Shown here piece after piece: positions 33,080 through 45,832 of a stretch of 45,832 bases of DNA. Numbering within the stretch: position 1 is the stretch's first letter; every line of letters starts with the position of its first letter. The notes beneath the pieces were generated by a model. The model searched no databases. It was given only the letters and a program-made list of their open reading frames with translations, and was not told where the DNA came from. Position numbers and translations under genes: made by a program. This stretch comes from Thermodesulfovibrionales bacterium (lineage in GTDB: Bacteria; Nitrospirota; Thermodesulfovibrionia; Thermodesulfovibrionales; UBA6898), in contig JBIOIY010000015.1 of assembly GCA_044450345.1 (NCBI GenBank), positions 1-45,832 on the forward strand, read 5' to 3'.

Positions 33080-34462
33080 CTAACCGGTTCCGCCGTCAAG
33101 GTCAGCAAGATAGGCGGAAGACGCCTTCAGGGATTTACGAACGGCTGTCTTCCCAAAGAGTCCGATCGCTGCGTAGTGGAAGTCCAATCTTGCCAGATGC
33201 CTGAAAATATATCTCCATGAATAAAAACGACCCATTGCCCTGAAGGTCTCCATCTGCAGGGTGGCCGTTGACATGAGCATGGGTCTGAAGACTACATGCT
33301 GGACATCGTATTTACTCCAGTCCCTATGGAGAAGTCTTCCGCTCTCCATCATATCGTGAAAGAACGGTGTTCCCGGTAGCGGTGTAAGAATCAGGAACTG
33401 TACCGTATCTATCTCAAGGTCTGTTGCAAAATCAGCAGTGCCGCGGATGGTATCGACCTCGTCTGTGTCCGCCCCCAGGACGAACATTCCGTGGATATGG
33501 ATACCGTGTTCTCTAACCGTCCTGATGCAGGAAATGATATCTTCCCGGTTCTGTTTCTTATTATACGCTTCAAGTGTCGCGGGATTTATGGATTCAAAAC
33601 CGATGTACAAAGTATGACAGCCCGAGTCAGCCATCAGGCGGAGAAGTTCCTGGTCTCTTGCAACCTCTGTCCTCACCTGGGCAGACCATCGCGTCTTAAT
33701 TCCCTCTGCAATCATTCCCCTGAGAATTTCCTTGGTCCTTCCTTTATTAGCCGCAAAGTTATCGTCAACAATGAACTTGGTCGCCTTGGATGCTGATGCT
33801 ACATATTTCAATTCCTTCAGCGTCGCCTCAACGGATTTAAAACGGTAGTTCCTTCCGAACATCTGGATGACGGAACAGAACTTGCAGTCAAAGGGACAGC
33901 CCCTCGATGTCGAAACAGGATAGGTATTTGACGGGGTCCAGTTATGAACAAGGGAGAAGTTAGGCTCGGGGAGGCTGTCAAGGTCTTCGATAAATCCTCT
34001 GGATGGGTTGTGAACATTCCTCCCGTCCCTGTCCCTGTACGAAAGCCCTTTGATACCCGTTAATGCCGGTGTCCCTTTCTCCAGGTGCTCAAGCAGTTCT
34101 ACAAGGGAATACTCTCCTTCCCCCCGTATGACAAAGTCGGCATATTCCAGGGACTCATCGGGCAGAAACGTGGGATGTGCTCCACCCATAATCACCGGTA
34201 TCCCCAGGGCTTTTAGCCGTTCCCCTATTTTGTATGCCTTTGTCGCTGTAGACGTTATGGTCGAGATGCAGACGAGGTCGGAGTTCTCAATGAATGACCA
34301 ATCGGGTTCGGCAACATCTTCAATAAATGCCTTTACTTCGTATCCCCTTTCCCTGAGGATAGTGGAAAGCAGCACGGCGCCAAGCCGCGGTATGGGAAAT
34401 TTGCTGAAGATATGCAGGCCGGGTGAGCCCGCTTCGATAAACGAGACTCTTTTGATAACCAT
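33080..34462 (-). CDS. B12-binding domain radical SAM protein
   Basis: Cobalamin-binding-type N-terminus (PRLG, VIMGGAHPT, VIRGEGE), TSRGCPFDCKFC, VDDNF, IGFES and LTPLPGTP. Confidence 0.92.
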   Translation of the reverse strand: MVIKRVSFIEAGSPGLHIFSKFPIPRLGAVLLSTILRERGYEVKAFIEDVAEPDWSFIENSDLVCISTITSTATKAYKIGERLKALGIPVIMGGAHPTFLPDESLEYADFVIRGEGEYSLVELLEHLEKGTPALTGIKGLSYRDRDGRNVHNPSRGFIEDLDSLPEPNFSLVHNWTPSNTYPVSTSRGCPFDCKFCSVIQMFGRNYRFKSVEATLKELKYVASASKATKFIVDDNFAANKGRTKEILRGMIAEGIKTRWSAQVRTEVARDQELLRLMADSGCHTLYIGFESINPATLEAYNKKQNREDIISCIRTVREHGIHIHGMFVLGADTDEVDTIRGTADFATDLEIDTVQFLILTPLPGTPFFHDMMESGRLLHRDWSKYDVQHVVFRPMLMSTATLQMETFRAMGRFYSWRYIFRHLARLDFHYAAIGLFGKTAVRKSLKASSAYLADLDGGTG

Positions 34463-34521: not shown

Positions 34522-35031
34522 CTACTTCGGCACTATCTTTTCTCGGCGCTTCTCTCCCGTCTGCAGGTCTTTGCCGTACAGGTCGATATACTTGACTTTG
34601 GGCCCTGTCAGCCCTTCAGAAGCGTTGATGTACATTTTTTCCAAGACGGCTGGCCGGCCGCTGATTATGGCCTCAGCGCGGACGGGTCCCTTCTTCTCCT
34701 TCTTTACGGTGATCTGATGCTCGGGGGCGGCTATCAGGGTCATTTTATAGCCGTTTACCGACAGGTCCGGCCTGATGGTAAAACCGTAGGCCTTTTTCTT
34801 CTCTATCCAACTGAGTTTCTTCCGGCGACCGTCCTCGGCGAGCAGGGCCCAGTAGACGATCACCGGCTCCTTGGTATCCAGTTTGCCGTCGGCGGTGAGC
34901 CGGGCGTCGTAATGTACGACGTTGGCGTTTTTGCTCCGTTCGATAATGAACAGAGGCGAAGTTTTCATCTGGGCCGCGGCAGGCGCGGCCAGTAACGCCA
35001 GAACGAAGGACCACCATATTGCCTTTTTCAT
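34522..35031 (-). CDS. Secreted DUF4833-like protein
   Basis: Signal peptide MKKAIWWSFVLALLAAPAAAQ with GGAGG RBS. LFIIERSKNANVVHYD, LSWIEKKKAYG and PKVKYIDLYGKD motifs recognised from memory of the family. Confidence 0.78.
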   Translation of the reverse strand: MKKAIWWSFVLALLAAPAAAQMKTSPLFIIERSKNANVVHYDARLTADGKLDTKEPVIVYWALLAEDGRRKKLSWIEKKKAYGFTIRPDLSVNGYKMTLIAAPEHQITVKKEKKGPVRAEAIISGRPAVLEKMYINASEGLTGPKVKYIDLYGKDLQTGEKRREKIVPK

Positions 35032-35108
35032 GGGACCTCCATTCTGGATATGGCTTTCACTGCCACCCATACCGGGGACTGCTGTCTGAAGACATTCCTG
35101 CGACCATG

Positions 35109-35189: not shown

Positions 35190-35561
35190 CGCACACCTCC
35201 ATTTGTTAATACATCTTCTCAGTATTGCGACTCGAATTCAAGCTCAATGAGAATTCTGTACCTTGGCCCCGCCGCAGGCAAGTAACCCTTCATCCTTTTC
35301 GCCTCGGCGAATCCGCCAGAGTGCGGACAGACTAAACACCCGAGTAGGTAACATCTTGCTCTATATGGAACTTTTAAGTGGAGATTTCGGACAGGTTTTG
35401 ACAGCAGACAGCAGCAAAGGAGTGTACCGACACCATCGGCAATAATTGAAAGACAGTTTCCAACAGATGGTGAACCTTGATATATCCCATGTTTTTTTTG
35501 TATCAAAAAATGTAAAACATCTTCTATATTATAGGCATCATAACGCATAAGGGATAGAGAC

Positions 35562-36179
35562 GTGAAAATACTTGTTGTGGATGATGAACAGCTTGTCCGA
35601 TGGTTCCTCGGTAGGGCACTCAGAAGAAATGGGCATGAAGTCGTAACTGCCGAGAACGTCCAGGATGCGTCGCTAAAGCTCGCTTCAGAGGCAATAGATG
35701 CTCTTGTTATCGACCTCAGAATGCCGGGAGAAAACGGGGCGAAACTTGTCGGAAAGGTAGATATAAGGGGAAAGATACCCAAAGTGATAGTCTGTTCGGC
35801 ATTTGTCACTGCCGAACTCGAAGAGGAACTCAGACAGAAAGGTGTATGCATACTAAGAAAGCCCATTATGCTGGATACGCTGAATGATGCCATCCAGATT
35901 TGTCTGGAGAAAGATCAAAGAGGAGAGATTAGGGAACAAATCATTGCAGATCTGATATGGTCTTATTCTCCTTCCACAGATAAAAACAAAGGCTTGCTTA
36001 TAGAGGAAAGCAAATCGGGCATGAGCATAATGACTTATATCCCGGTAAAAGTGGGCAGCATATTGAGAATTGAATGTAAAGGTTCATGGTTGGTTTCACG
36101 CTATGCTACCGTTCAATGGTGTCGGGAGGTTGCTCCGAATAACTATAGATGCGGCTTGTTTGTGAATAAGTATTACTGA
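35562..36179 (+). CDS. Response regulator with a REC domain and a C-terminal PilZ-like domain
   Basis: ILVVDDE, IDLRMPG, CSA and RKP. C-terminus has QRGEIR (RxxxR), EESKSG, and ATVQWC...YRCGL. Confidence 0.8.
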   Translation: MKILVVDDEQLVRWFLGRALRRNGHEVVTAENVQDASLKLASEAIDALVIDLRMPGENGAKLVGKVDIRGKIPKVIVCSAFVTAELEEELRQKGVCILRKPIMLDTLNDAIQICLEKDQRGEIREQIIADLIWSYSPSTDKNKGLLIEESKSGMSIMTYIPVKVGSILRIECKGSWLVSRYATVQWCREVAPNNYRCGLFVNKYY

Positions 36180-36425
36180 AGTAACGGACTTTTCACTTTT
36201 TTGAAAAGTGCAGTTTTTAAGGGGAACTCAATAGATATCAATAATAGAAACTGTTGCGGTGTTCAGGAAGACATCCAAATATTTGCCTGACCTCCCACAT
36301 CTGCCTATTTTTTTTTAGCACGATAAGAGGCGAAACGTATCTGGCGGGTCATTTATTATGAACGACTCTCAGTCCTCCGCTCTGTATTGTCATGAACACA
36401 GCCGACCGTTACGGTATAATAATGG

Positions 36426-37421
36426 ATGCGCAAGGTCGTATTGATCGCATCGGTGCTTCTTCTATTGTTTCCTGCAGCGTTTTGCGCGGCATCCGACAAA
36501 ACCTATTCAAATCCTGTCCTAGTCGACACCTATCACATCAGCCGGCCAGAACCAGCACGATACATCGGCACGCTTGGGATAGGCGATCCCGACGTCGTTT
36601 TGTACAAAGATATGTATTATCTTTACCCAACAGGGGACAACCACAGCTACCATGTCTATATATCCGATGACCTAGTCCACTGGTCTAGGGGGCCGAAAGT
36701 GTTTCAGAGCAACGAAAATGGTGTATGGGCGCCTAATGTCTTCTTCAACCGCGATGACGGTATGTTATATCTCTACTACACGGCAAACGGCAAGATTGGC
36801 GTTGCTGAAGCAAACCGTCCCGTCGGGGAGTTTAAAGACCTGGGGAATCTGATCAGCAGCGCGATAGATGCGCACATGTTCCGCGACGACGACGGCTCAT
36901 ATTTCCTCTATTACGCCAGGTACCCGAACTTCGGGATATTTGTCCAGCCTATGGCTACCCCTGTTCGGAAGAAGGGTGAACCCATTCGAGTCATCTCTCC
37001 TTCCGAGGCATGGGAAATAACAAATGTGCCGGTTACCGAGGCACCATGGCTACTCAAACACCGGGGCGTCTATTACCTCCTTTACTCTGGGGGCAGTGCG
37101 AATACGGAGCATTACGCCATCGGGTACGCAACGGCACAAAACCCCTTAGGTCCTTTTACCAAGTATCCCGGAAATCCTATCATCCGAGAGGGAGGTGGCG
37201 TCCTCGGGCCAGGGCATGGGAGTGTCACGAGGGATCGGGAGGGGAAACTCTGGCTGGTTTATCACCAGCAGAGGGATAAGACACCGGGCTGGAACAGGGT
37301 TATCTGTATCGACCCCCTCTGGTTCGACGAGAAAGGTGTCCTCCATGGAAAAGCCACACGGGCGAGGCGACGGCCCGCGCCTGTGACAGCAGAGAAAACC
37401 GGGGGAGCGGCACGGAAATAA
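36426..37421 (+). CDS. Glycoside hydrolase family 43 protein, secreted
   Basis: Signal peptide, GDPDV (base), WAP, IDAHMF, TEAPW (acid), YYLLYSG, GPFTK and GPGHGSV. Confidence 0.9.
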   Translation: MRKVVLIASVLLLLFPAAFCAASDKTYSNPVLVDTYHISRPEPARYIGTLGIGDPDVVLYKDMYYLYPTGDNHSYHVYISDDLVHWSRGPKVFQSNENGVWAPNVFFNRDDGMLYLYYTANGKIGVAEANRPVGEFKDLGNLISSAIDAHMFRDDDGSYFLYYARYPNFGIFVQPMATPVRKKGEPIRVISPSEAWEITNVPVTEAPWLLKHRGVYYLLYSGGSANTEHYAIGYATAQNPLGPFTKYPGNPIIREGGGVLGPGHGSVTRDREGKLWLVYHQQRDKTPGWNRVICIDPLWFDEKGVLHGKATRARRRPAPVTAEKTGGAARK

Positions 37422-37690
37422 ATCGGGGCCCTCACCTTTTCTCAATTGCTCATGTTTAAAGGAGTACTTCCTCCTCTTCTAACAAATATGCTATAAAGAG
37501 AGTAAGAGTTGTAAGGCAGGAGAACGCAGTTCTTCCCGGGTCTTCAACAGTTATGACTTTGTAATACCTATCGAGTATCAGATAACTCGCCCATACCAAA
37601 AAAAGGGTGCACCTCTCAAGAACGAAAAGACCTAATGGAGTCAAGTGGATAGTCACAGTGCACATTTGCCGGTCTTTTCATAGGTAATCT

Positions 37691-39040
37691 CTACCGCTTT
37701 CCTGTTGAGTTGGACCCCGATGCAAATGGTTGCGGATTCCTAAGACCTTTGAAATAACGTTTACGGGTAGATAGATTGATCCCGGCGTATACCTGGCAAC
37801 CGAACAGGGTCCGTTTCCATGGGCTCATGCCAAAGAACCGTTTTGTTATCGCGCCGAAAGAATAGACTTGTCTGTTCAAGCGGGCGAAACCGTTAATGAG
37901 TTCGTCGGCAGTCATGCCCTTTGGTTGATAAAGGAGTGTATCAGGAGGATATCCACGGAGCCACCAGTCACTTATAAACAACCTGCCTTCGCCTATGAGA
38001 CGCTTGTATAAACGTGTTCCCGGATAAGGAGTGAGGATCCTCAGCTGGACACAATCCATACGACTCCTCATAATAAATTCAAGGGTCTGCTCGAATACAT
38101 CCTTGTTTTCATAATCAAAGCCAAAAACAAAGCAGCCCAGTATACCGAAACCTTCAGCATGGAATCGATGCATGGCCTCATAAAAATCGATCCTCAGGTT
38201 CTTTATTTTATTCACCTCATTTTGTGTGCCTTTCTGTACCGATTCGAATCCAATCAAAAGCCCCATGCACCCCGCTCGTTTCATCAAGCCTATCAGCTCC
38301 AAATCCTGAGCCAACGACACTGTTCCTTGTCCCAGCCATAGCCGCCGAAGAGGTATCATTTCAGTAAAAAGCTTTTTGGCTGCATTCCGGTTCAGTCCAA
38401 GGGCGTCATCGACGAAGAAGATGTGACGGGAATCGATCGCCTCTATTTCGGCAATCACTTCCTGAACAGGCCTGACTCGATATTGATGCCCCAATGGTCC
38501 AATGGAACAGAATTCGCAATCGTGCGGACACCCGCGCGATGTCTCGACGCCGATCGGGACCGGGATATAGCCTTTCCCGTCGGCTCCGGGGAGGAGATCT
38601 CGCCGTGGTTTCGGCAGGCCCTGGAGATCGGTCATTTTATCGGCCCGATATATTCTTTGCATCTGCTCCGAGGCCGCATCAGATACAAGTTGTGGCCAGA
38701 TGGCCTCCGCTTCTCCTACAACTACAGCGTCTGCATGCGCTAAAGCTTCGTCAGGCAATACAGTGGGGTGTATTCCTCCCATCACCACTTTCACAGCCTT
38801 CCGGCGATAGGTGTCGCCGATTTGGTAGGCTCTCTGCGCAAGTTCGGTCAAGACGGTGATGCCCACCAAATCCACATCCTGATTGATGTCATCAGGAGCA
38901 AAAGCTTCCTCAACTATTGTAATCGTGTGGCCAGGCGGGGTGAGCGCCGCCAAAAGAGGGAGATTTACCCTCTGTAGTTTGAAGGGGCTGGATATCGTGT
39001 CTTTACGTTGTTCATGGGGTGCGATAAGTTTTATTTTCAT
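37691..39040 (-). CDS. B12-binding domain radical SAM protein
   Basis: LAALTP, VVMGGIHPT, VVVGEAE, TSRGCPHDCEFC, FVDD, IGFES and LTPYPGT. Confidence 0.92.
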   Translation of the reverse strand: MKIKLIAPHEQRKDTISSPFKLQRVNLPLLAALTPPGHTITIVEEAFAPDDINQDVDLVGITVLTELAQRAYQIGDTYRRKAVKVVMGGIHPTVLPDEALAHADAVVVGEAEAIWPQLVSDAASEQMQRIYRADKMTDLQGLPKPRRDLLPGADGKGYIPVPIGVETSRGCPHDCEFCSIGPLGHQYRVRPVQEVIAEIEAIDSRHIFFVDDALGLNRNAAKKLFTEMIPLRRLWLGQGTVSLAQDLELIGLMKRAGCMGLLIGFESVQKGTQNEVNKIKNLRIDFYEAMHRFHAEGFGILGCFVFGFDYENKDVFEQTLEFIMRSRMDCVQLRILTPYPGTRLYKRLIGEGRLFISDWWLRGYPPDTLLYQPKGMTADELINGFARLNRQVYSFGAITKRFFGMSPWKRTLFGCQVYAGINLSTRKRYFKGLRNPQPFASGSNSTGKR

Positions 39041-39088
39041 GTCTTCATCTCTCCAGTATTATTTAGTTGGGCGGAACAAACAGCGCCC

Positions 39089-40204
39089 CTACTTGCCCTC
39101 TTCCCATTTGGTGGCTATGATCCCCAGGATGAATACTACGACCACGAAAGCCCCTATGACCGCGGAGTAACGCAGCGCGGCCATGTTGTCTTCAAATACC
39201 ATGGATGCCCGGAGCCCCTCGTTCACGTAAAACAGCGGCAGCGTCCTGGCGAACTTCTGCAGGAACCCAGGCATCAGCTCGATAGGGAAGAAGCTCCCCG
39301 AGAGGAACATCATCGGGAAACTGATGGCGTTTGCCGCGGCGGCGGCGCTCTGGGCCTCCTTCACGAAGCGGGCGAGTATCATCCCGATTCCGACGAACGC
39401 GAAGACGTCAAGCAAAATGAACGCAAGGAGCCAGGCGTCGATATGCAGGCTGACGTCAAACACCGCGTAGCTCACCAGCAGCATCGCAATCGTCGATATG
39501 ACCGCGAGTATGAATTGGTACAGGATGTTCGACAGTATCCAGTCGGTCCGGGTGATGGGCGTTGTGGACAGCTTCCTGATGATGCCCTTCTGCCGCAGCT
39601 CCGTGTCCGAGTCCACCGTGCCGAACAGGCTCAACGTCATCACCGACATCGCGATGATACCGGGGACGAAGAACTCGATGAACCGGTATTTCTTGGCGAG
39701 TATAGATCTCTCAGCCGATCGGATGAACGGCGGCTTCCCGGACATCTTCTGGTTTATCACGGCTAACACTGCGTTCAGGATATCCTTCTTCGTGGCCACA
39801 GAGGAAGAGCTGGGGTCGTATATATAGGTGATGGTGACGGATGCGGTGAAGTCGTTGAACACCATCCTCTGCATGAGGGCCCTTTCATAGCCTTTGGGAA
39901 TAACGAGGACAAGGTTCACCCTGTTGTCCCTGACGTACTGGGTGGCGTTGACGGCGGGGTCGACCCTGGTTATCTTGAATTTCCCGTTGAACTCGAGGGT
40001 CTTGATGGCCTGTGCGGACGAATTCGTCTGGTCGAGGTCCTGCACACAAAGGTGGTATTCCACGTTGTCCTGGCTCATGAATATCGTGCCGAACACGAGT
40101 ATCAGAATTATCGGAAACGCAAACGTAAAGAACATCGTGGTCTTCTCACGGTAGAAGCTCAAGAGCTTCACGACGAGATTTGCACTGATTATGCGCGGTT
40201 TCAT
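39089..40204 (-). CDS. ABC-2 type exporter permease
   Basis: FFTFAFPI TM, periplasmic loop, FFVPGIIAM, GIIRKLSTTP, PMMFLSGSFFP and LPL. Confidence 0.93.
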   Translation of the reverse strand: MKPRIISANLVVKLLSFYREKTTMFFTFAFPIILILVFGTIFMSQDNVEYHLCVQDLDQTNSSAQAIKTLEFNGKFKITRVDPAVNATQYVRDNRVNLVLVIPKGYERALMQRMVFNDFTASVTITYIYDPSSSSVATKKDILNAVLAVINQKMSGKPPFIRSAERSILAKKYRFIEFFVPGIIAMSVMTLSLFGTVDSDTELRQKGIIRKLSTTPITRTDWILSNILYQFILAVISTIAMLLVSYAVFDVSLHIDAWLLAFILLDVFAFVGIGMILARFVKEAQSAAAAANAISFPMMFLSGSFFPIELMPGFLQKFARTLPLFYVNEGLRASMVFEDNMAALRYSAVIGAFVVVVFILGIIATKWEEGK

Positions 40205-41148
40205 TTTGCCACCATTTCGGGCTGATCCTCCCGGAGCGCCTCGCCGGTGAGCTTCAGGAAGACCTCTTCAAAGTTGGGTTTCCGAACGTCCAGACCGAGG
40301 TACAAGGCCCCGGCGTCCCTGATGGCATTCAGTATCTTCTGCACATCGTCCGTGTGCTCCACCCTGATCTTGATGTCTTTGTAGTTATCAAGGACAGGCT
40401 CGAAGCCCATCGTCCGGACGATTTCTAAGACTTTTTCGTCGGCGGGCTTTAGCGTGAGGACCAGGTAATTCGCGTTATTTTCGATGAGTTCCCTTGGCGA
40501 GCCCATGGCGATTACCTTACCCTTCGAGATTATGGCAACCGTGTCTGCAAGAAGCTCCGCTTCCTCCATGTAGTGTGTGGTGAGAAACACCGTCTTCCCC
40601 TTTTTTTTCAGGCCCAGCAGGACCTCCCATACCTCGCGCCTTGCGCGGGGGTCGAGCCCTGTTGTCGGCTCGTCGAGGAACACGACCTCGGGGTCGTTTA
40701 CGAGAGCAATCGCTATTCCGAGACGCTGTTTTAAGCCCCCGGAGAGGTTCCTGTACTGCTCTTTGGTCTTGTCCTTGAGGTTCACGAGCTCTATCAACCC
40801 GTCGATATCGGAGTCCATGCAGAAAAGCCGCGAGTAGTACTGGATGGTCTCCCTGACCGTTATCCTGTCGAACGAACTGAACCCCTGCGGGAGGACGCCG
40901 ATGCGTGGGACGATGTCGTGTTTCTTCTTCGTAACGTCCATTCCAAGAAGGGTCACTTTCCCGGACGTGGGCGTGCGGATCGTCTCGATGACCTCGACGG
41001 TAGTGGTTTTGCCGGCGCCGTTCGGGCCCAGAAAGGCAAACACCTCGCCTTTACTGACTGTGAAGGATATGTCGTTGACCGCCAGTAAATCCCCGTACCT
41101 CTTCGTCAGTCTCTCGACTTCGATTGCGTATTCAGTTTCTTTGGTCAT
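40201..41148 (-). CDS. ABC exporter ATP-binding protein
   Basis: GPNGAGKTT, LSGG, FLDEPTTGLDP and TTHYMEEAE. GGAG before MTKETE. Confidence 0.95.
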   Translation of the reverse strand: MTKETEYAIEVERLTKRYGDLLAVNDISFTVSKGEVFAFLGPNGAGKTTTVEVIETIRTPTSGKVTLLGMDVTKKKHDIVPRIGVLPQGFSSFDRITVRETIQYYSRLFCMDSDIDGLIELVNLKDKTKEQYRNLSGGLKQRLGIAIALVNDPEVVFLDEPTTGLDPRARREVWEVLLGLKKKGKTVFLTTHYMEEAELLADTVAIISKGKVIAMGSPRELIENNANYLVLTLKPADEKVLEIVRTMGFEPVLDNYKDIKIRVEHTDDVQKILNAIRDAGALYLGLDVRKPNFEEVFLKLTGEALREDQPEMVAK

Positions 41149-42331
41149 GAATCTCCATTTTGCCTCCATGGGTCAACGGCATTGAAACCGGCACATCCGA
41201 TGCGGCGCGAGGGGAGACGGCTGGCCAGAACCTGAGGCGGCTAAGGACCTTATTGTTGACCGCAGGCCATGCAATAAGAAAACGGTCAATCACCGGCTGG
41301 CGGTGTTTAAATAAAATAAAGCTTGGGATCAATGTCGCACCCAGGTGTGCTTTGGTCCTCTCCGCGCCCTGCCCCGCGTAATAAAGTGGGATTTTTTGCT
41401 CCACGCAGGTGCGGACATTTTCGAGCCAGGACAAGACATAAAGGTTGTATGTGCGGCCGAGCTCGGTATCCATGCAGAAATAAATATCCACCATCGCTTC
41501 CTGTTTTACGACGAGAAGGTTGAAAGCGACGAGTTCTTCCTGCACAAAGTAGAGTATGTATTCGGCGCCCGGGACTCCCTCACAGATTTTTTCAAAAAAT
41601 AAACGGTTGTGCATGCCAAGCGCCATGGGGCTGCGCTCCACTGTTTTCAGATAAAGCGTGTAGATCCTGTCGAGAAAGGGAGAAATAGTGCGGCTTCGAA
41701 CCACTCTGACTTCGTGGGAGGCACGCATTTTGCGGCGCAGGTCTTTTCTGGCGGCCCTTGAAAAGCGGCCCAGGAATTCCTCCATGCTGCTAAAATCGAT
41801 CGGCAGCCGGGCGCAGGACTGACATTGCACCCGGTTGAATTGCTTGAACACTTCCCCTGGAAGTTTGCCGTAATGATTGAAGTTGTAAAGCGCCACGATG
41901 TCGCTTTTCAGTTCGGCAGCGAGCGTCTGCAAGGCGCCAAAGGCCATTTTGCATGCCGCATCGAGCGTGGCCTCATCGATTTGAGGATCAACCCCGATTT
42001 CACTCCATTCCCCTACCAGCAGCCCGACGCTTAAAACACGGGGTTGAAAAAGTGAGGGGATGAGCCGGCCTGCAACTTTTAGCGATTTCTTGATCCATCC
42101 CTCCACAAAAGTGGACAGATCAAAACGGGTTTCAAACAACGGCAATAAGAGAATGGGAACATCATCTCTCAACACAACGATGCTCCGCAGGTTAAAACCG
42201 TCTATACCCGATTCTTGCAACAGAGAAAGAAGGGGGGCGGTTATAGAAGGCTCAGGGAAAAGCCGTCCAAGTTCTGCGGCCGACACTCCGTCTAACCGCG
42301 GCACGCAATTGCAGGTAAGGTTATTCATCAT
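41132..42331 (-). CDS. GNAT-fold acyltransferase, FemAB-like
   Basis: FSSMEEFLGRFSRAARKDLRRK, FFEK, LVAFNL, YNLY and YYAGQGAERTKAHLGA are typical of double-GNAT FemAB-like proteins. Confidence 0.78.
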   Translation of the reverse strand: MMNNLTCNCVPRLDGVSAAELGRLFPEPSITAPLLSLLQESGIDGFNLRSIVVLRDDVPILLLPLFETRFDLSTFVEGWIKKSLKVAGRLIPSLFQPRVLSVGLLVGEWSEIGVDPQIDEATLDAACKMAFGALQTLAAELKSDIVALYNFNHYGKLPGEVFKQFNRVQCQSCARLPIDFSSMEEFLGRFSRAARKDLRRKMRASHEVRVVRSRTISPFLDRIYTLYLKTVERSPMALGMHNRLFFEKICEGVPGAEYILYFVQEELVAFNLLVVKQEAMVDIYFCMDTELGRTYNLYVLSWLENVRTCVEQKIPLYYAGQGAERTKAHLGATLIPSFILFKHRQPVIDRFLIAWPAVNNKVLSRLRFWPAVSPRAASDVPVSMPLTHGGKMEIHDQRN

Positions 42332-43094
42332 CGCCTGTCGGCCTCCGGCTCAAAAGGGCGATGGAAAGCCACATCTTCCTCTGAGGAAGCGAACGTACCA
42401 ATAGGGATTGGCCGGCATCCATGGGAAACCGCACCAAGGCCTTCCCTGATAAGCCCACTGGAAAGGTATACCCCCAATTCTCCGCAATTGGCCCCCCTGC
42501 CGCGCTCTCTTCAGATGGATAGACGGTGATTTGCCGCGGATCCACGAGGTGGAATCCACATCCCAGGGCCTTGACAACGGCTTCCTTGGTAGACCAGAGC
42601 AGGGCCGATGCCTTTTCCAAATCTCCGTCCGCCAACCTTAAGGCATGTTGAAGCTCTTGTGGATGGAAGACCCGGTGAAAGGGGTATCCTGTGTGGAATT
42701 CATCGGTCCCTGCCACATCAATGCCGATATCAGACTTATCTGCACAGAGGGCGGCCCAGACCCTTCCTCCACCTTCGCTGAAGGAAACAGCCGGCCCCCG
42801 ATGCTCTCCCAACAGGAGATGGGGCTTGCCAAGCTGGTCGTGGACCACCTGAATCGGGAAAGCGTCTCTGTTTGAGGATTGAGAGCGTTTCCAAAGAGGA
42901 CTCTCCCCCACTACAAGATAGTCCCACAGGATGGAGACGAGGCGGTGTTTTGCTGCTTCTCCGTTCGTATCATGATCCTTGCGGGTTTCGGTGTCACGTT
43001 GAAGGGATGCATAGAAGACGGGTCCCCTTCCATGGACGGTATTCATCGTATGGACGGTTACTCCTTCGCGATCCATTGTCATATTGACTCTCAC
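42321..43094 (-). CDS. 4'-phosphopantetheinyl transferase (ACPS/Sfp superfamily)
   Basis: LGKP, SFS, IGIDV and LWSTKEAVVKALGCG. Directly downstream of a PKS. Start is uncertain. Confidence 0.88.
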   Translation of the reverse strand: MRVNMTMDREGVTVHTMNTVHGRGPVFYASLQRDTETRKDHDTNGEAAKHRLVSILWDYLVVGESPLWKRSQSSNRDAFPIQVVHDQLGKPHLLLGEHRGPAVSFSEGGGRVWAALCADKSDIGIDVAGTDEFHTGYPFHRVFHPQELQHALRLADGDLEKASALLWSTKEAVVKALGCGFHLVDPRQITVYPSEESAAGGPIAENWGYTFPVGLSGKALVRFPMDAGQSLLVRSLPQRKMWLSIALLSRRPTGDDE

Positions 43095-43111
43095 CTGTCC
43101 GTAGCCTCGGC

Positions 43112-45832
43112 TCAGTCCGAACCCCAGTGCATTCGAATACCGGAAATCTGCATGATGGTGCGGCCTTGATCGTCAATCCCTCTGGCGTCCCAGGAGAGGC
43201 CTTCGTCGTCCTGCGCCCGCATGCGGGCCTCAAGGGTTATCTGTTCCCCCGCCCGGCATTTTCGCAAAAACGTCATCTCCCCGATCTCCATGGGAATCAT
43301 CGATCGCCGCTCCGATGGTTCCGTTAGAGCGATGTGGAAGCCGACCAACTGCAAAAGGGCCTCGAAAAGGTAGGGAGAGTATTGGTACCGGGCGTTGCGC
43401 AGATTTGCGAAATCACTTGTCTGCCTGTAGGTAGTCCGGCCCCGCACTACCCCTAGACCTGCACCGTCAAGGAACTCCATCACGCGATACCTGCCTTCGA
43501 GACCGCTGCGGTCTTTGTACCATTTAAGCACTTTTTTATGATCCATAGGCCCCGTCCGAAGTTCGTCGAGCCGAACAGGAAAATCCGGGAGCCCCTCCCC
43601 GAGATATCCTTCCCCGCCATCAAGGATCACCTGGCCCTTACAGTGCGGGGTGAAGCGGTCGGTCAATCTCCCGGCGGGGGAGATATCCTGTGTTGCGAGT
43701 GAGACCTCGCACAATACCCCCGGAAGGCCTCTGCTGGCCCGGCTGCATGAGATCCTGGAAGGCCGTGGGACCCCCGGAGGACATTGGATCATGTCCATGA
43801 ACCGCACATGGCGAACTCCCCGCACCTTGAGGTGGGGATACAGGACCCGGGCGGCTTCCATGAATGTCTCCAGGACCATTGCGGCTGAGACCAGAGGATG
43901 CTTGACGAACCTGAAAGGCCTGTGGTCCGCGATCCAAAGATCCTTCTTTAGGGAGAAGGATCTGAAGGCCTCCAGTTCTTCCCGGCGGATGTCCAGACAA
44001 GAGATCCTTTCTATCATGGGAAAGTCTTCGGGGCTGAAGGACACGGTGCCTCCATCAAGTTTTTTACTGAGTGAAGGGAGGGTTGTATCATTGATATTAT
44101 TTATGTCATCGGGATCCATGTCATTGATTAGGGCCGTGCTCATTGGTGGCAGCCTCCTCATGAACATCACCCAATCGTCGTCGGCAGGGGCTACAAAGAG
44201 CTCGCGGCAGAAAAGCCCTGCAAGCTCATTTACATGTATGTACGACACGCCCTTCCGCTTCATCAGCTCCCGGACCTCCGGGTCCTCGGCCATGCCCGCC
44301 CCCTCGACGGGGGGAAGCATCAAAGCCTTGAACCGGATGTCACCATTTTTCCGGTGGAGAGTCCTGAGTAACGCAGACATCATCCGGTTGGCTGCGGCGT
44401 AGTTGGCCTGGCCGGGATTCCCCTGGATCGCGGCCGCCGAGGAGAGGCCCACGAAAAACCTCAAACCGACCCCTGCCGCAGCCGAGAACAGATTCCAGGC
44501 CCCGAGGAATTTGACGTCCGTGACCATGGAGAAATCATCCGGGGTCATTTGGCTTAAGAGACCGTCCCTGAGGACTCCGGCGCCGTGAATGATCCCATCG
44601 ATCTTGCCATAACGGCTTGCCACCTCGCCCATGATCGTGCGTACCGCTTCGGGGTCGGTCACATCGCAGGTATGGTACGTTGCCTCGATCCCTGAAGACC
44701 GCAAATCCGCCAGGGTCCGGACGATCTCCGATGCCCTGGGGTTGCCCCGATCGAGAGGGGTCCTCCCCAGCAATACCAGGCGGGGCCCGAAAGGCACGAG
44801 GCATTGGGCCAGATGGGCGCTGATTCCGGTTGCGCCCCCGGACATGACTACAACGTCTCCAGGGCTCAGATTCAGACTTGACGAATCCCCGAAGACCGAC
44901 GGGGCCACGTGTCCCTCTGAAGTGAAGACCCTTCCATCACGATGAATGATCTCTACCACGGTACAACTTCTGTCCAGAGCACCGTGCAGCGCAACGCGAA
45001 GGTCGGTATCCCTGTCGATTTCCATTGTGCGAAACTGGACCGATGGGTATTCATGCGCTGCGCTCAGAAAAAGTCCGAGCATCCCTTCCGCCATCAGACT
45101 GCCGGGAGTTTCGGCATCCTCCCTGGAATGGATCAGCACCACGAATTTCTTAGCCGGTGATTGGAGAAATGCCTTCAGTGGTAAAAATAGTCCCGTCAAA
45201 AGCCGCGAAACATCCGCTATACCTTTTAACTTTCCAGCCCAGTCTTTAGGTAAGGTGATAACCATCCCAGCCAGGGACGCCAAACCCGATATTCTTTCTG
45301 ATACCTTACAAAATCCTTCATCAGTAAAAATATCATAACCTTCTTGTCCGGAATCGTTCGCCTTCATAAATTGCATTGGGATCGTGTCAACCCCGTAATC
45401 CTGCCGGAAGATATCTCCGACATTTTTTGCAATCCCGTTGTCCCCGGCATTATCCTTATCCGGTGAAAGAAGAAGCACCGAATCGCTCCGGCTTAATTTT
45501 ATTGGTGCCGCTGCCGAGATTTCCACGGGCACGCTCCTGAATACCAGTCGCTTCAGATTCGCCTCATCCCATAAGGGCTTCAGGGTTTCGTCTTGCACTA
45601 AGCCGGGTCCGGCCGTCTTGGTGGCCGGCGGCAGGTCGACACCCTCTTTTGCAGCGACCAGCCCGGAGATCTTCTCGGCGATGTCCCTGATGGTGCGGAG
45701 ACCTATAAAATCCTCCAGTTCGATGGTGATCCCGAAATGGCGTTCCGCTGCATCCATGATTATCGGGAGACGGCTGGAGCGGATGGAGAGGTCCCTTCTG
45801 AGATCCATATCAGGCCGGATTTCATCCCTGTT
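43112..45832 (-). CDS. Type I polyketide synthase, PfaA-like C-terminal part (ACP-KR-DH), partial at the window end
   Basis: Frame stays open to 45832 (NRDEIRPDMDLRRDL). ACP-like helix set, KR (SGGATGI, CDVTD, HGAGVLRD, SSAAA..GNPGQANYAAAN) and double-hotdog DH (WIADH...P.V, PYLFEALLQ). Confidence 0.92.
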   Translation of the reverse strand, partial: NRDEIRPDMDLRRDLSIRSSRLPIIMDAAERHFGITIELEDFIGLRTIRDIAEKISGLVAAKEGVDLPPATKTAGPGLVQDETLKPLWDEANLKRLVFRSVPVEISAAAPIKLSRSDSVLLLSPDKDNAGDNGIAKNVGDIFRQDYGVDTIPMQFMKANDSGQEGYDIFTDEGFCKVSERISGLASLAGMVITLPKDWAGKLKGIADVSRLLTGLFLPLKAFLQSPAKKFVVLIHSREDAETPGSLMAEGMLGLFLSAAHEYPSVQFRTMEIDRDTDLRVALHGALDRSCTVVEIIHRDGRVFTSEGHVAPSVFGDSSSLNLSPGDVVVMSGGATGISAHLAQCLVPFGPRLVLLGRTPLDRGNPRASEIVRTLADLRSSGIEATYHTCDVTDPEAVRTIMGEVASRYGKIDGIIHGAGVLRDGLLSQMTPDDFSMVTDVKFLGAWNLFSAAAGVGLRFFVGLSSAAAIQGNPGQANYAAANRMMSALLRTLHRKNGDIRFKALMLPPVEGAGMAEDPEVRELMKRKGVSYIHVNELAGLFCRELFVAPADDDWVMFMRRLPPMSTALINDMDPDDINNINDTTLPSLSKKLDGGTVSFSPEDFPMIERISCLDIRREELEAFRSFSLKKDLWIADHRPFRFVKHPLVSAAMVLETFMEAARVLYPHLKVRGVRHVRFMDMIQCPPGVPRPSRISCSRASRGLPGVLCEVSLATQDISPAGRLTDRFTPHCKGQVILDGGEGYLGEGLPDFPVRLDELRTGPMDHKKVLKWYKDRSGLEGRYRVMEFLDGAGLGVVRGRTTYRQTSDFANLRNARYQYSPYLFEALLQLVGFHIALTEPSERRSMIPMEIGEMTFLRKCRAGEQITLEARMRAQDDEGLSWDARGIDDQGRTIMQISGIRMHWGSD

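Follow-up and report, generated by a model that had tools for sequence, protein, structure and literature searches.

A conserved six-gene unit on the minus strand

The window, by which we mean the entire 45.8 kb stretch of DNA that was analysed, ends in six minus-strand genes, and a check of the open reading frames found them at the coordinates given in the first-pass annotation, co-oriented and closely packed as it had described. These six genes are the visible 3' 8.1 kb of a larger cassette. They are listed here together with two further genes that lie outside the unit.

43112..45832, minus strand: type I synthase (PKS), C-terminal 906 amino acids, open at the window end (Pfam); its last ACP lies at nucleotides 45674-45826, KR at 44348-44851 and PS-DH at 43127-43420
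42321..43094, minus strand: 4'-phosphopantetheinyl transferase (PPTase), 257 amino acids, GTG start (PF01648, 7.3e-12)
41132..42331, minus strand: FemAB-like tandem-GNAT transferase (GNAT), 399 amino acids, probable start at the second methionine, nucleotide 42328 (weak Pfam matches and an AlphaFold model)
40201..41169, minus strand: ABC transporter ATPase, 322 amino acids, alternative start at 41148 (PF00005, 1.2e-31)
39089..40204, minus strand: ABC-2 type permease, 371 amino acids (PF12698, ABC2_membrane_3, 2.7e-37)
37691..39040, minus strand: B12-binding radical SAM enzyme, 449 amino acids, final gene of the unit in the window (PF02310, PF04055)
34522..35034, minus strand: secreted DUF4833 protein, start at the methionine preceding a signal-like segment (PF16117, 2e-35)
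33080..34462, minus strand: second, paralogous B12 radical SAM gene, outside the six-gene unit (Pfam)

The spacing reported earlier was reproduced, with a 17-bp gap between PKS and PPTase, an 11-bp overlap between PPTase and GNAT, a 4-bp overlap between ATPase and permease, and a 48-bp gap before the radical SAM gene. The remaining figure, a 17-bp overlap between GNAT and ATPase, depends on the ATPase start, being 17 bp with the methionine at 41148 and 38 bp with the longest open reading frame (41169). GNAT homologues align from the second methionine, with which the overlap with the PPTase gene is 8 bp.

Both genes outside the unit are sporadic neighbours of the cassette in the related loci described below. 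The second radical SAM gene is about 33% identical to the first and has a homologue directly after the first in one locus (L013, 91% identity) and another at the end of L035, and L005 and L057 carry homologues of the DUF4833 gene (77-79% identity) on the downstream side of the cassette.

The cassette recurs across phyla

Searches identified 59 related loci with the GNAT, carrying about 11 phylum labels, although nearly all of these loci are metagenome bins and the labels may be wrong for short contigs. The usual order in these relatives is a bCerS-like N-acyltransferase, a Cys/His lipoprotein, the synthase, the PPTase, the GNAT, the ABC-2 exporter, an optional EptA-like transferase and the B12 radical SAM enzyme, and tblastn recovered the same genes in an unchanged order throughout the 59, with few exceptions. 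Counting for each gene only loci with a long enough flank, PKS and PPTase were present in 36 of 39, the ABC ATPase in 49 of 51, the permease in 50 of 51 and the radical SAM gene in 29 of 41. Of the 24 loci flanked by 10 kb on either side, 17 have the bCerS-like gene, 22 the lipoprotein gene and 16 the EptA-like gene. The GNAT is the most constant member of the cassette (67-91% identity across the 59 loci); identities in related loci are 64-86% for the PKS at the amino acid level (45 loci), 75-96% for the ATPase, 63-91% for the permease and 74-90% for the radical SAM enzyme (39 loci). The arrangement far exceeds what chance would produce. Conservation of the downstream genes with the PKS, which the first-pass annotation had named as a test, held, and the region is a single conserved operon-like unit, as it had proposed. 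The radical SAM gene is not obligatory, since it was not found in 12 of the 41 loci with enough flank.

The window shares 75-88% nucleotide identity with its 25 best-matching loci, which span several phyla, indicating that the cassette spreads horizontally. The tree also mixes phyla, with 18 label changes compared to a minimum of 10, and contains mixed clades. The cassette is highly conserved and common to many phyla of uncultured, mostly anaerobic bacteria, and a literature search found no paper describing it.

In two loci (L040 and L043), the FemAB-like GNAT directly adjoins a FAAL-ACP-AOS fusion, where AOS denotes an alpha-oxoamine synthase. The fetched flank of L043 contains neither a megasynthase nor a radical SAM gene, but retains the GNAT, the lipoprotein, the ABC-2 pair and the bCerS-like, CerR-like and PAP2 genes. 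This gene content suggests that the PKS can be exchanged for another acyl supplier and may be one of two interchangeable ones, and it indicates that the GNAT is independent of this PKS.

The synthase is a single reducing module

Pfam places a PP-binding domain at residues 3-53 of the window PKS, KR at 328-495 and PS-DH at 805-902, and finds no thioesterase in this fragment, confirming the earlier description of a PKS that ends in ACP-KR-DH without one. An ACPS match likewise confirms the identity of the PPTase. Full-length relatives of the PKS are about 2,650 amino acids long and consist of one module with the order FabK-type ER-KS-AT-ACP-ACP-KR-DH. The complete architecture is seen in L013:1306-9252 (NMO/FabK ER, KS, AT, two ACPs, KR and PS-DH), where the fused ER matches solved FabK enzymes at 7e-22. 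Judged by its domains, the synthase is a single, fully reducing module resembling a FAS. The analysis supports a lipid-type product over an aromatic one.

Neighbouring genes in relatives suggest a link to ceramide synthesis

The acyltransferase encoded upstream of the synthase in relatives (GNAT2) is 31% identical over 379 amino acids to YghO of E. coli BL21 (E 1e-65). The gene yghO is described as a homologue of the Caulobacter ceramide N-acyltransferase CC_1154, in an account that itself only infers YghO to be an N-acyltransferase and writes that it "might be" one (PMC9386255). By clustering of open reading frames, this bCerS-like gene occurs in 21 of the 59 loci. A neighbouring AOS has serine palmitoyltransferase as its best NCBIfam match (1e-164), with 548 bits compared to an equivalog cut-off of 640, and is 44% identical to BL21 Spt (E 2e-99); this Spt-like gene adjoins the cassette in 11 of the 59 loci by the same clustering and in 5 of the 24 with full flanks. 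An epimerase encoded nearby shares 32% identity with BL21 'epi', a CerR homologue (E 2e-41). Clustering places the CerR-like epimerase gene beside the cassette in 8 of the 59 loci and a PAP2 gene in 11. The presence of a bCerS homologue together with Spt-like, CerR-like and PAP2 neighbours points to a link between the cassette and bacterial sphingolipid synthesis. None of the bCerS-like, Spt-like, CerR-like, PAP2 and lipoprotein genes was seen anywhere in the 45.8 kb of the window itself; because the upstream side of the window ends inside the PKS, the link to ceramides rests on the relatives.

Comparison with the ceramide genes of Caulobacter crescentus and E. coli BL21(DE3) (Spt, bCerS, CerR, AcpR/AasR) shows both common and distinct features. 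Relatives of the cassette carry the bCerS/YghO homologue and a minority also the Spt-like and CerR-like genes, and both systems have a dedicated, carrier-protein-bound acyl supply, which in the known pathway involves AcpR/AasR (PMC9386255). As that pathway is described, its acyl source is an acyl-ACP synthetase with a small ACP, whereas the cassette has a 2,650-amino-acid de novo synthase, along with the FemAB/MprF-like GNAT, the Cys/His lipoprotein, the ABC-2 exporter, the EptA-like transferase and the B12 radical SAM enzyme, all absent from the pathway in that description.

Reducing PKSs without a thioesterase also act with an AOS to form 2-amino-3-keto lipids in fumonisin- and myriocin-type pathways, which are fungal or actinobacterial natural-product pathways. 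In contrast, the AOS adjacent to the cassette in those 11 loci is Spt-like and lies among envelope lipid genes.

The predicted GNAT fold resembles aminoacyl-tRNA-dependent transferases

The GNAT has weak Pfam matches to FemAB_like, ATE_C and Acetyltransf_6, with the score against FemAB_like (PF04339) reaching 25.5 bits, just under the gathering score of 27; more distant relatives of the protein (25-47% identity) exceed this cut-off with up to 59 bits. Its AlphaFold model (pLDDT 90.2, pTM 0.87) has the tandem-GNAT fold of FemX and MprF. The best Foldseek matches are the C-terminal domain of MprF/Lys-PG synthase, FemX, Sba18/Sbb17 and A-PGS/L-PGS (entries 5vrv, 1xf8, 7z6a, 9wqy and 4v35; E about 1e-11, target TM 0.6-0.69), and fold similarity is moderate overall (TM about 0.5-0.69). 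Sequence searches against the solved aminoacyl-tRNA-dependent members of the tandem-GNAT group gave no detectable match. Among these proteins MprF acts on a membrane lipid, and the window GNAT lacks the fused flippase domain found in MprF. The GNAT carries an invariant Lys327 and a basic RKDLRRK helix. Membership of the GNAT itself in the bCerS family was rejected (E 0.36 against YghO).

The first-pass annotation had suggested that the GNAT might be the release enzyme. In that case it would take the finished chain off the PKS ACP and join it to a small amine or alcohol through an amide or ester bond, as in an N-acyl amino acid-type lipid that the ABC pair would then export. GNAT-like enzymes that unload acyl-ACP exist, among them N-acyl amino acid synthases, OlsB and LuxI. 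Release by the GNAT would agree with a PKS that has no thioesterase, with the translational coupling of the GNAT between PPTase and exporter, and with its constancy in the cassette, and acyl-CoA-using tandem GNATs (the clavulanate tandem GNAT, Eis and N-myristoyltransferase) are also among the matches of the model (E 1e-10 to 1e-8). However, aminoacyl-tRNA-dependent transferases account for the best fold matches and for all three of the weak Pfam matches, the bCerS-like N-acyltransferase and, in some loci, the Spt-like enzyme are better candidates for releasing the chain, and the GNAT is retained in L043, where the fetched flank has no megasynthase. We therefore regard release by the GNAT as possible but unlikely; its predicted fold, nearest to MprF and FemX, favours a decorating role.

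The exporter, the radical SAM enzyme and other possible products

Pfam confirms ABC_tran and ABC2_membrane_3 domains in the exporter pair. The best NCBIfam matches of the pair are of the DrrA, NodI, DrrB and SagH types, all below their curated cut-offs, with 265 bits for the ATPase against the drug-efflux DrrA subfamily (cut-off 312) and 71 bits for the permease against DrrB (cut-off 223). The radical SAM enzyme exceeds the thresholds of both PF02310 (39.4 bits compared to 32.1) and PF04055 (52.8 bits compared to 29.5), and with an N-terminal B12-binding domain and the cluster motif CPHDCEFC, of the CxxxCxxC type, it is class B-like. Against the named NCBIfam families (HpnJ, BchE, the TIGR04072 lipid radical SAM family and methylases) all scores were far under the cut-off, for example 97 against 578 for HpnJ, and the nearest solved sequence is AprD4 (5.8e-14).

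These matches bear on whether the cassette could be a secondary-metabolite cluster, in which the radical SAM enzyme and the GNAT would tailor a toxin or antibiotic of the reduced polyketide kind and a DrrAB-like self-resistance transporter would export it. Many biosynthetic clusters are horizontally mobile and B12 radical SAM enzymes are common as tailoring enzymes, so the mobility of the cassette, whose DNA in the 25 best-matching loci is over 75% identical to the window, and the identity of the best exporter matches would suit such a cluster. We nevertheless consider it improbable, given that none of the ABC family scores reaches its curated cut-off, that the synthase is a single fully reducing, FAS-like module with a FabK-type ER, and that the recurrent neighbours are a lipoprotein and membrane-lipid enzymes (bCerS-like, Spt-like, CerR-like, PAP2 and an EptA-like phosphoethanolamine transferase).

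A PfaA-type secondary lipid synthase, making polyunsaturated fatty acids, heterocyst-type glycolipid alcohols or olefin precursors, is a very remote prospect and was rejected: the KS-AT-tandem ACP-KR-DH order of PfaA-type synthases is present (ACP-KR-DH in the window, full length in L013) and the PfaA model TIGR02813 matches the KR region alone of the window's C-terminal third of the PKS (3.4e-24), but with 83.8 bits compared to a cut-off of 1010, with the ER fused at the N-terminus, and with no PfaB/PfaC (KS-CLF, AT, FabA-like DH) or separate PfaD among the gene families that recur within 10 kb in the 59 loci. Of the earlier PfaA-type reading, only the terminal domain order survives. In the cassette and the Pfa-type synthases (types A-T in Shulse and Allen 2011) alike, a dedicated PPTase accompanies a large protein of the order KS-AT-tandem ACP-KR-DH, and both are patchy in distribution and horizontally transferred; as those types are presented, the cassette differs in its fused FabK-type ER, its single KS without a CLF/PfaB/PfaC partner and its other accessory genes. 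None of the cluster types considered here from PMC3098273 has the gene set of the cassette, and the nearest in order, type J (an ER gene followed by KS-MAT-ACP3-KR), is without a DH and the accessory set.

A proposed pathway to an exported amino lipid

On balance, we favour the reading that the window shows the 3' part of a horizontally mobile cassette of about 17-20 kb, whose probable function is to synthesise, decorate and export a ceramide-like (sphingolipid-type) amino lipid. From its gene content, order, conservation, domains and homologies we infer the mechanism, the product, the GNAT donor and the radical SAM chemistry as follows. The synthase would be iterative, fully reducing and self-contained, with two ACPs activated by the PPTase, and would make a saturated or hydroxy acyl chain. 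If a sphingolipid-type lipid receives its acyl chain from this synthase, a thioesterase would be unnecessary, as the chain could leave by transfer, either through the Spt-like AOS to serine or a related amino acid, or through the bCerS-like N-acyltransferase encoded upstream in relatives to the amine of a long-chain base. The FemAB/MprF-like GNAT may then attach a further group, with an aminoacyl group from aminoacyl-tRNA best fitting the predicted fold and an acyl group as the alternative. The ABC-2 ATPase and permease would carry the lipid out of the inner leaflet, and the EptA-like transferase or PAP2 enzyme, where present, could act in the periplasm to attach a head group. The B12 radical SAM enzyme would alter the alkyl chain without oxygen, by methylation, desaturation, hydroxylation or another reaction. 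In the earlier idea of an exported, amide- or ester-linked product of an oxygen-independent pathway, amide linkage and export appear probable, and the gene set shows no obvious step that requires oxygen.

According to PMC11087976, sphingolipids still lack an identified flippase or transporter. In a bolder and rather unlikely combination, the ABC-2 pair would be the missing inner-membrane ceramide exporter, the GNAT an aminoacyl-tRNA:ceramide (or long-chain base) aminoacyl transferase, and the radical SAM enzyme a catalyst that methylates, desaturates or hydroxylates the sphingoid or acyl chain without oxygen, all travelling between phyla as one block of DNA with a private fatty-acid synthase. 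If this were true, the cassette would supply three things that the bacterial sphingolipid field lacks. Such a GNAT would account for ceramides that bear amino acids, among them the lysine-ceramides that have been reported in anoxic water (PMC11334938). We know of no enzyme for these.

Organization of the cassette

Six co-oriented open reading frames occupy the minus strand at 37691-45832, and their positions, together with the Pfam assignments, bear out the gene set and spacing proposed in the first-pass annotation. The description of the PKS given there, an ACP-KR-DH end with no thioesterase, likewise held, as Pfam recovers the three domain types and no thioesterase in the fragment present in the window. 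The genes of the unit and its surroundings are as follows.

43112-45832, minus strand: PKS fragment running past the window end (Pfam PP-binding, KR, PS-DH)
42321-43094, minus strand: PPTase, 17 bp after the PKS (Pfam ACPS)
41132-42331, minus strand: FemAB-like tandem GNAT (flagged GNAT), overlapping the PPTase by 11 bp, or by 8 bp if the second methionine is the start
40201-41169, minus strand: ABC ATPase, sharing 38 bp with the GNAT, or 17 bp if translated from the methionine at 41148 (Pfam ABC_tran)
39089-40204, minus strand: ABC-2 permease, overlapping the ATPase by 4 bp (Pfam ABC2_membrane_3)
37691-39040, minus strand: radical SAM gene, 48 bp after the permease (Pfam B12-binding and Radical_SAM, both above cut-off)
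36426-37421, plus strand: GH43 hydrolase, converging on the unit
35562-36179, plus strand: response regulator (receiver protein), converging on the unit
34522-35034, minus strand: secreted DUF4833 protein, within 3-5 kb beyond the operon
33080-34462, minus strand: rSAM2, a second, paralogous B12 radical SAM gene, about 33% identical to the first and 3.2 kb downstream

Because the strand switches downstream, where the response regulator and the GH43 hydrolase lie on the plus strand, the unit in the window ends with the radical SAM gene. A promoter and terminator consensus scan of 36000-45832 returned counts near expectation (13 vs 7.1±3.1 and 12 vs 9.8±3.4 in shuffled sequence, respectively), and the short gaps between the six genes contain no site. 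An open reading frame at 35219-35893 on the minus strand (224 aa) was rejected as a gene, being of low complexity, belonging to no family and shadowing the plus-strand response regulator. Two related loci, L005 and L057, have homologues of the DUF4833 protein (77-79% identity) downstream of the cassette. Every homologue of the flagged GNAT aligns from its second methionine. The database gene call for this protein (P0009) is 347 aa, approximately 52 residues shorter than the open reading frame, and as conservation extends through the missing residues in every one of the 21 aligned homologues, its start was probably called too late.

Conservation and spread between phyla

A word search yielded 649 relatives of the flagged GNAT; among the 120 listed, all except P0009 are 76-90% identical, and their source names span several phyla. 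One genome per species (GTDB representatives, 185,579 species) was scanned with an alignment of 22 GNAT relatives, and 59 loci were recovered with GNAT identities of 67-91%, the scan resting on two peptide patterns that divergent copies may have escaped. Fifty-eight of these loci come from metagenome-assembled genomes, the exception (L002) being a complete chromosome, CP113000.1, and none is titled as a cultured isolate. Tblastn searches with the window proteins recovered the gene set and order of the window in all but a few of the 59 loci.

Identity and presence of cassette genes across the related loci (tblastn; presence counted only in loci with enough flank, from matches of at least 45% identity)
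Gene; amino acid identity; loci with gene
PKS; 64-86%; 36/39, counted jointly with PPTase (exceptions L040, L043, L051)
PPTase; 49-80%; counted with PKS
ABC ATPase; 75-96%; 49/51
ABC-2 permease; 63-91%; 50/51
Radical SAM; 74-90%; 29/41

The first-pass annotation had let its reading stand or fall with the conservation of the downstream genes alongside the PKS, and in these flank-limited counts they are conserved together. With the lowest count, the radical SAM gene is the least fixed member of the cassette. In some loci cassette genes are split into pieces in different frames, namely the PKS and permease (L009), the PKS (L052), the GNAT (L057) and the radical SAM gene (L042); L046 and L059 are also among the loci with split genes, and such cases could be either bin assembly errors or decaying copies. 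In a plasmid collection, 47 records matched, all below 60% identity (approximately 30%), and the cassette was present in none of them.

A maximum-likelihood tree of the GNAT from 44 loci and the window (quick search, SH-aLRT support only) is very compact (median end branch 0.13), and the phylum labels on it are mixed, with 18 label changes compared to a minimum of 10, the labels having been taken from submitters' titles, of which those reading “Deltaproteobacteria bacterium” were oddly mapped by taxonomy. One mixed clade with a support of 100 contains three Verrucomicrobiota, two Acidobacteriota, one Binatota and one Planctomycetota, and another with a support of 98 joins Geobacteraceae to a Bacteroidota record. 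At the nucleotide level, the 8.1 kb of window cassette DNA gives alignments of 7.8-8.5 kb with the best 25 loci, at 75-88% identity; identity to the window cassette is 84.8% in L002 (Thermodesulfobacteriota), 82.2% in L015 (Verrucomicrobiota) and 80.4% in L052 (Acidobacteriota, on a 496-kb contig). Some contigs, such as L034 at 1.8 kb, are so short that they may be mis-binned; several others are long and come from different phyla, which supports the view that the spread of the cassette between phyla is real. The GC3 of the cassette genes (0.52-0.81, compared to 0.63-0.70 in housekeeping genes of the window) is not clearly foreign. L033, a Thermodesulfovibrionales record, is one of the two nearest relatives of the window; the other, L013, has the downstream rSAM2 and brkB in common with it. 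The host thus probably belongs to the Nitrospirota.

The synthase and further cassette genes

Full-length relatives of the PKS measure approximately 2,650 aa. In L013 (1306-9252) the order is an N-terminal 350 aa, an NMO/FabK-type ER, KS, AT, two ACPs, KR and PS-DH, with the enoyl reductase matching solved FabK enzymes (7e-22) and the N-terminal 350 aa having no Pfam match and resembling the ER domain next to it only weakly (E 0.019). The synthase of a Binatia record (L024:3331-9126) is 1,931 aa, without the N-terminal 350 aa and the FabK-type ER, and a separate ER gene was not seen in its flank. With its large tandem-ACP protein and a PPTase of its own, the cassette is similar to Pfa-type secondary lipid synthases, but it fails the family model, and no PfaB/C/D partners appeared among the recurrent neighbour families within 10 kb; PfaA-type membership was rejected on these two grounds. 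The first-pass interpretation was supported in part; the conserved unit stood and the PfaA-type assignment did not. In the part of Shulse and Allen available, none of the cluster types described has the gene set of the cassette.

Two more conserved genes lie upstream in relatives, encoding a 278-aa lipobox protein and a second GNAT-like protein (GNAT2). In L013 and L033 they precede the PKS, the lipoprotein being the nearer to it, and a like arrangement is predicted beyond the window end after a further 5.2 kb or so of PKS (ER-KS-AT-ACP). ORF clustering placed GNAT2 (approximately 375 aa) in 21 of the 59 loci, which is an undercount because the gene often lies right where the 10-kb flank stops. 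The lipoprotein was found in 32/59 loci by the same clustering and varies in position (before the PKS, in the PPTase-GNAT gap, after the radical SAM gene or directly after the GNAT). It has no match in Pfam or NCBIfam, and a protein atlas gave sub-threshold leads to TseH/NlpC-P60-like and DUF3750 clusters (0.89); its AlphaFold model is poor (pLDDT 66.5), with 0 of 500 Foldseek matches at E ≤ 0.001. Two invariant residues of the lipoprotein, His101 and Cys200 (motif NNCTD), point to a possible thiol enzyme and may resemble LRAT-type motifs. In addition, the permease and radical SAM genes are separated in 23/59 loci by a gene for a 592-aa sulfatase-family protein, which has EptA-type phosphoethanolamine transferases as its best NCBIfam matches and is absent from the window.

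The radical SAM enzyme carries the cluster motif CPHDCEFC and a B12-binding domain. No named family fits it, with HpnJ, BchE, TIGR04072 (“lipid biosynthesis”) and others far below their cut-offs, and the closest solved sequence is the diol dehydratase AprD4 (5.8e-14). In L013, the rSAM2 paralogue lies directly 3' of the first radical SAM gene.

The FemAB-like GNAT

The flagged GNAT scores 25.5 bits against the Pfam FemAB_like cut-off of 27, with weak matches to ATE_C and Acetyltransf_6. Its distant relatives (25-47% identity) are proper PF04339 members (up to 59 bits), some of them fused to an alpha/beta hydrolase, an arginase-family domain or an EamA transporter. Alignments against PDB sequences gave chance-level matches only (E ~1). 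The AlphaFold model (pLDDT 90.2, pTM 0.87, from 67 sequences) was compared to the PDB with Foldseek, and the top matches (E ~1e-11, target TM 0.57-0.69) were the C-terminal domain of MprF (lysyl-phosphatidylglycerol synthase), FemX, the aminoacyl-tRNA-dependent peptide synthases Sba18 and Sbb17, and alanyl- and lysyl-PG synthases. This modelled fold favours an aminoacyl-tRNA donor, with MprF as the nearest lipid-acting example. Acyl-CoA-using tandem GNATs rank lower in the same search, and use of an acyl donor is possible.

A homologue of approximately 30% identity is encoded on a Rhizobium sp. BG4 plasmid (NZ_CP044127.1; L062:1688-8394) in an operon with a HAD phosphatase, a class III aminotransferase, an arginase-family protein, a permease, a fatty acid desaturase, an alpha/beta hydrolase and an EamA protein, and partners from this operon recur as domain fusions in other GNAT relatives. 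As a lead at this level of identity, the rhizobial operon may represent an uncharacterised amino-lipid pathway.

Association with ceramide-type genes

Three neighbours recur in the related loci (ORF clustering, Pfam, NCBIfam), usually just past the radical SAM gene on the opposite strand. These are an alpha-oxoamine synthase (AOS) in 11/59 loci, which matches the serine palmitoyltransferase family best (1e-164) although its 548 bits fall short of the equivalog cut-off of 640; a PAP2_3/PAP2_C protein, also in 11/59 loci, that weakly matches phosphoinositol dihydroceramide synthase (5.5e-6); and an NAD epimerase-family protein in 8/59 loci. According to the available portion of PMC9386255, the Caulobacter ceramide genes correspond in E. 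coli BL21(DE3) to yghO, an epimerase gene, acpR, aasR and spt, with yghO paired with the Caulobacter N-acyltransferase CC_1154. GNAT2, the bCerS-like protein, is 31% identical to BL21 YghO over 379 aa (E 1e-65), the neighbouring AOS 44% identical to BL21 Spt (E 2e-99) and the neighbouring epimerase 32% identical to BL21 “epi” (E 2e-41). The flagged GNAT aligns with no identity to either YghO (E 0.36) or GNAT2 (E 1.2), and its placement in the bCerS family was rejected on these values.

Two variant loci strengthen the association with ceramide-type genes. In L040, a Verrucomicrobiota record, a 1,107-aa FAAL-ACP-AOS fusion ends 39 bp before the longest GNAT open reading frame. In L043 (1525-15470), a Methylomirabilota record, one strand carries the FemAB-like GNAT, the lipoprotein and FAAL-ACP-AOS, and the other carries PAP2, a bCerS-like gene, an epimerase, two stand-alone KS genes and the ABC-2 pair; the megasynthase, PPTase and radical SAM genes were not seen in the fetched flank. 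The GNAT, lipoprotein and exporter thus accompany ceramide-type genes with or without the megasynthase, which, from gene content, appears interchangeable with a fatty-acid-activating FAAL-ACP.

Compared to the bacterial ceramide pathway, the cassette would work likewise, with a private acyl supply, yet it is not simply a member. No Spt, bCerS or CerR was seen in the window (which is cut inside the PKS), and Spt is adjacent in only 11/59 relatives.

In E. coli BL21(DE3), a region (L061:9920-15646; NC_012971.2 2994920-3000646) directly adjoining the E. coli B spt-acpR-epi-aasR-yghO cluster encodes LptG/LptF-annotated paralogues, a YtfJ-family protein, a “lipopolysaccharide biosynthesis protein” and an ATP-binding protein. 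The cassette likewise places an ABC-type lipid exporter beside ceramide genes, a parallel that may point to a sphingolipid transporter.

Proposed pathway and significance

It is somewhat probable that the cassette as a whole makes, decorates and exports a sphingolipid-type lipid, and the single steps are each held with much less confidence. The PPTase would prime the two ACPs of the synthase, which, with all four reductive-cycle activities, would build a saturated or 3-hydroxy chain. As there is no thioesterase, the chain would be taken off by transfer, either by an Spt-like AOS to an amino acid, giving a 3-keto long-chain base, or by the bCerS-like enzyme to the amine of a long-chain base, giving an oxidised ceramide. 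In the Caulobacter model used for analogy, as far as the accessible part of PMC11087976 describes it, Spt and bCerS are cytoplasmic and CerR periplasmic. The FemAB-like GNAT may add an aminoacyl or acyl group, and the ABC-2 pair would carry the lipid across the inner membrane or out of it, with periplasmic finishing by the His/Cys lipoprotein and, where present, EptA-like, PAP2 and CerR-like proteins. The radical SAM enzyme would change the chain without oxygen. The boldest reading would make the ABC pair the missing ceramide exporter and the radical SAM enzyme an anaerobic chain modifier, with the GNAT modifying ceramide in an aminoacyl-tRNA-dependent reaction; that all three hold at once is unlikely.

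Long regarded as rare, bacterial sphingolipids are today inferred to occur in dozens of phyla. We know of no enzymes for unusual sphingolipid head groups or for oxygen-free chain modification. Transport of bacterial sphingolipids is treated as unresolved in the available text of PMC11087976. Full-text literature searches returned no paper on this gene combination, and Stankeviciute et al. 2022 may hold neighbourhood data that bear on its novelty. We would class the unit as a bacterial sphingolipid-type lipid cluster that combines a fused FAS-like synthase with four or five accessory genes new to descriptions of that pathway and that spreads between phyla of uncultured bacteria. It places candidates for the transport, head-group and oxygen-free chain steps beside a ceramide N-acyltransferase homologue and adds a dedicated acyl-chain megasynthase, and the whole moves between phyla of uncultured anaerobes at approximately 80% DNA identity. 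At approximately 17-20 kb, the unit is compact enough for synthesis and expression, and for lipid geochemists it would offer a genetic marker for a possible lipid class from uncultured, mostly anaerobic bacteria.
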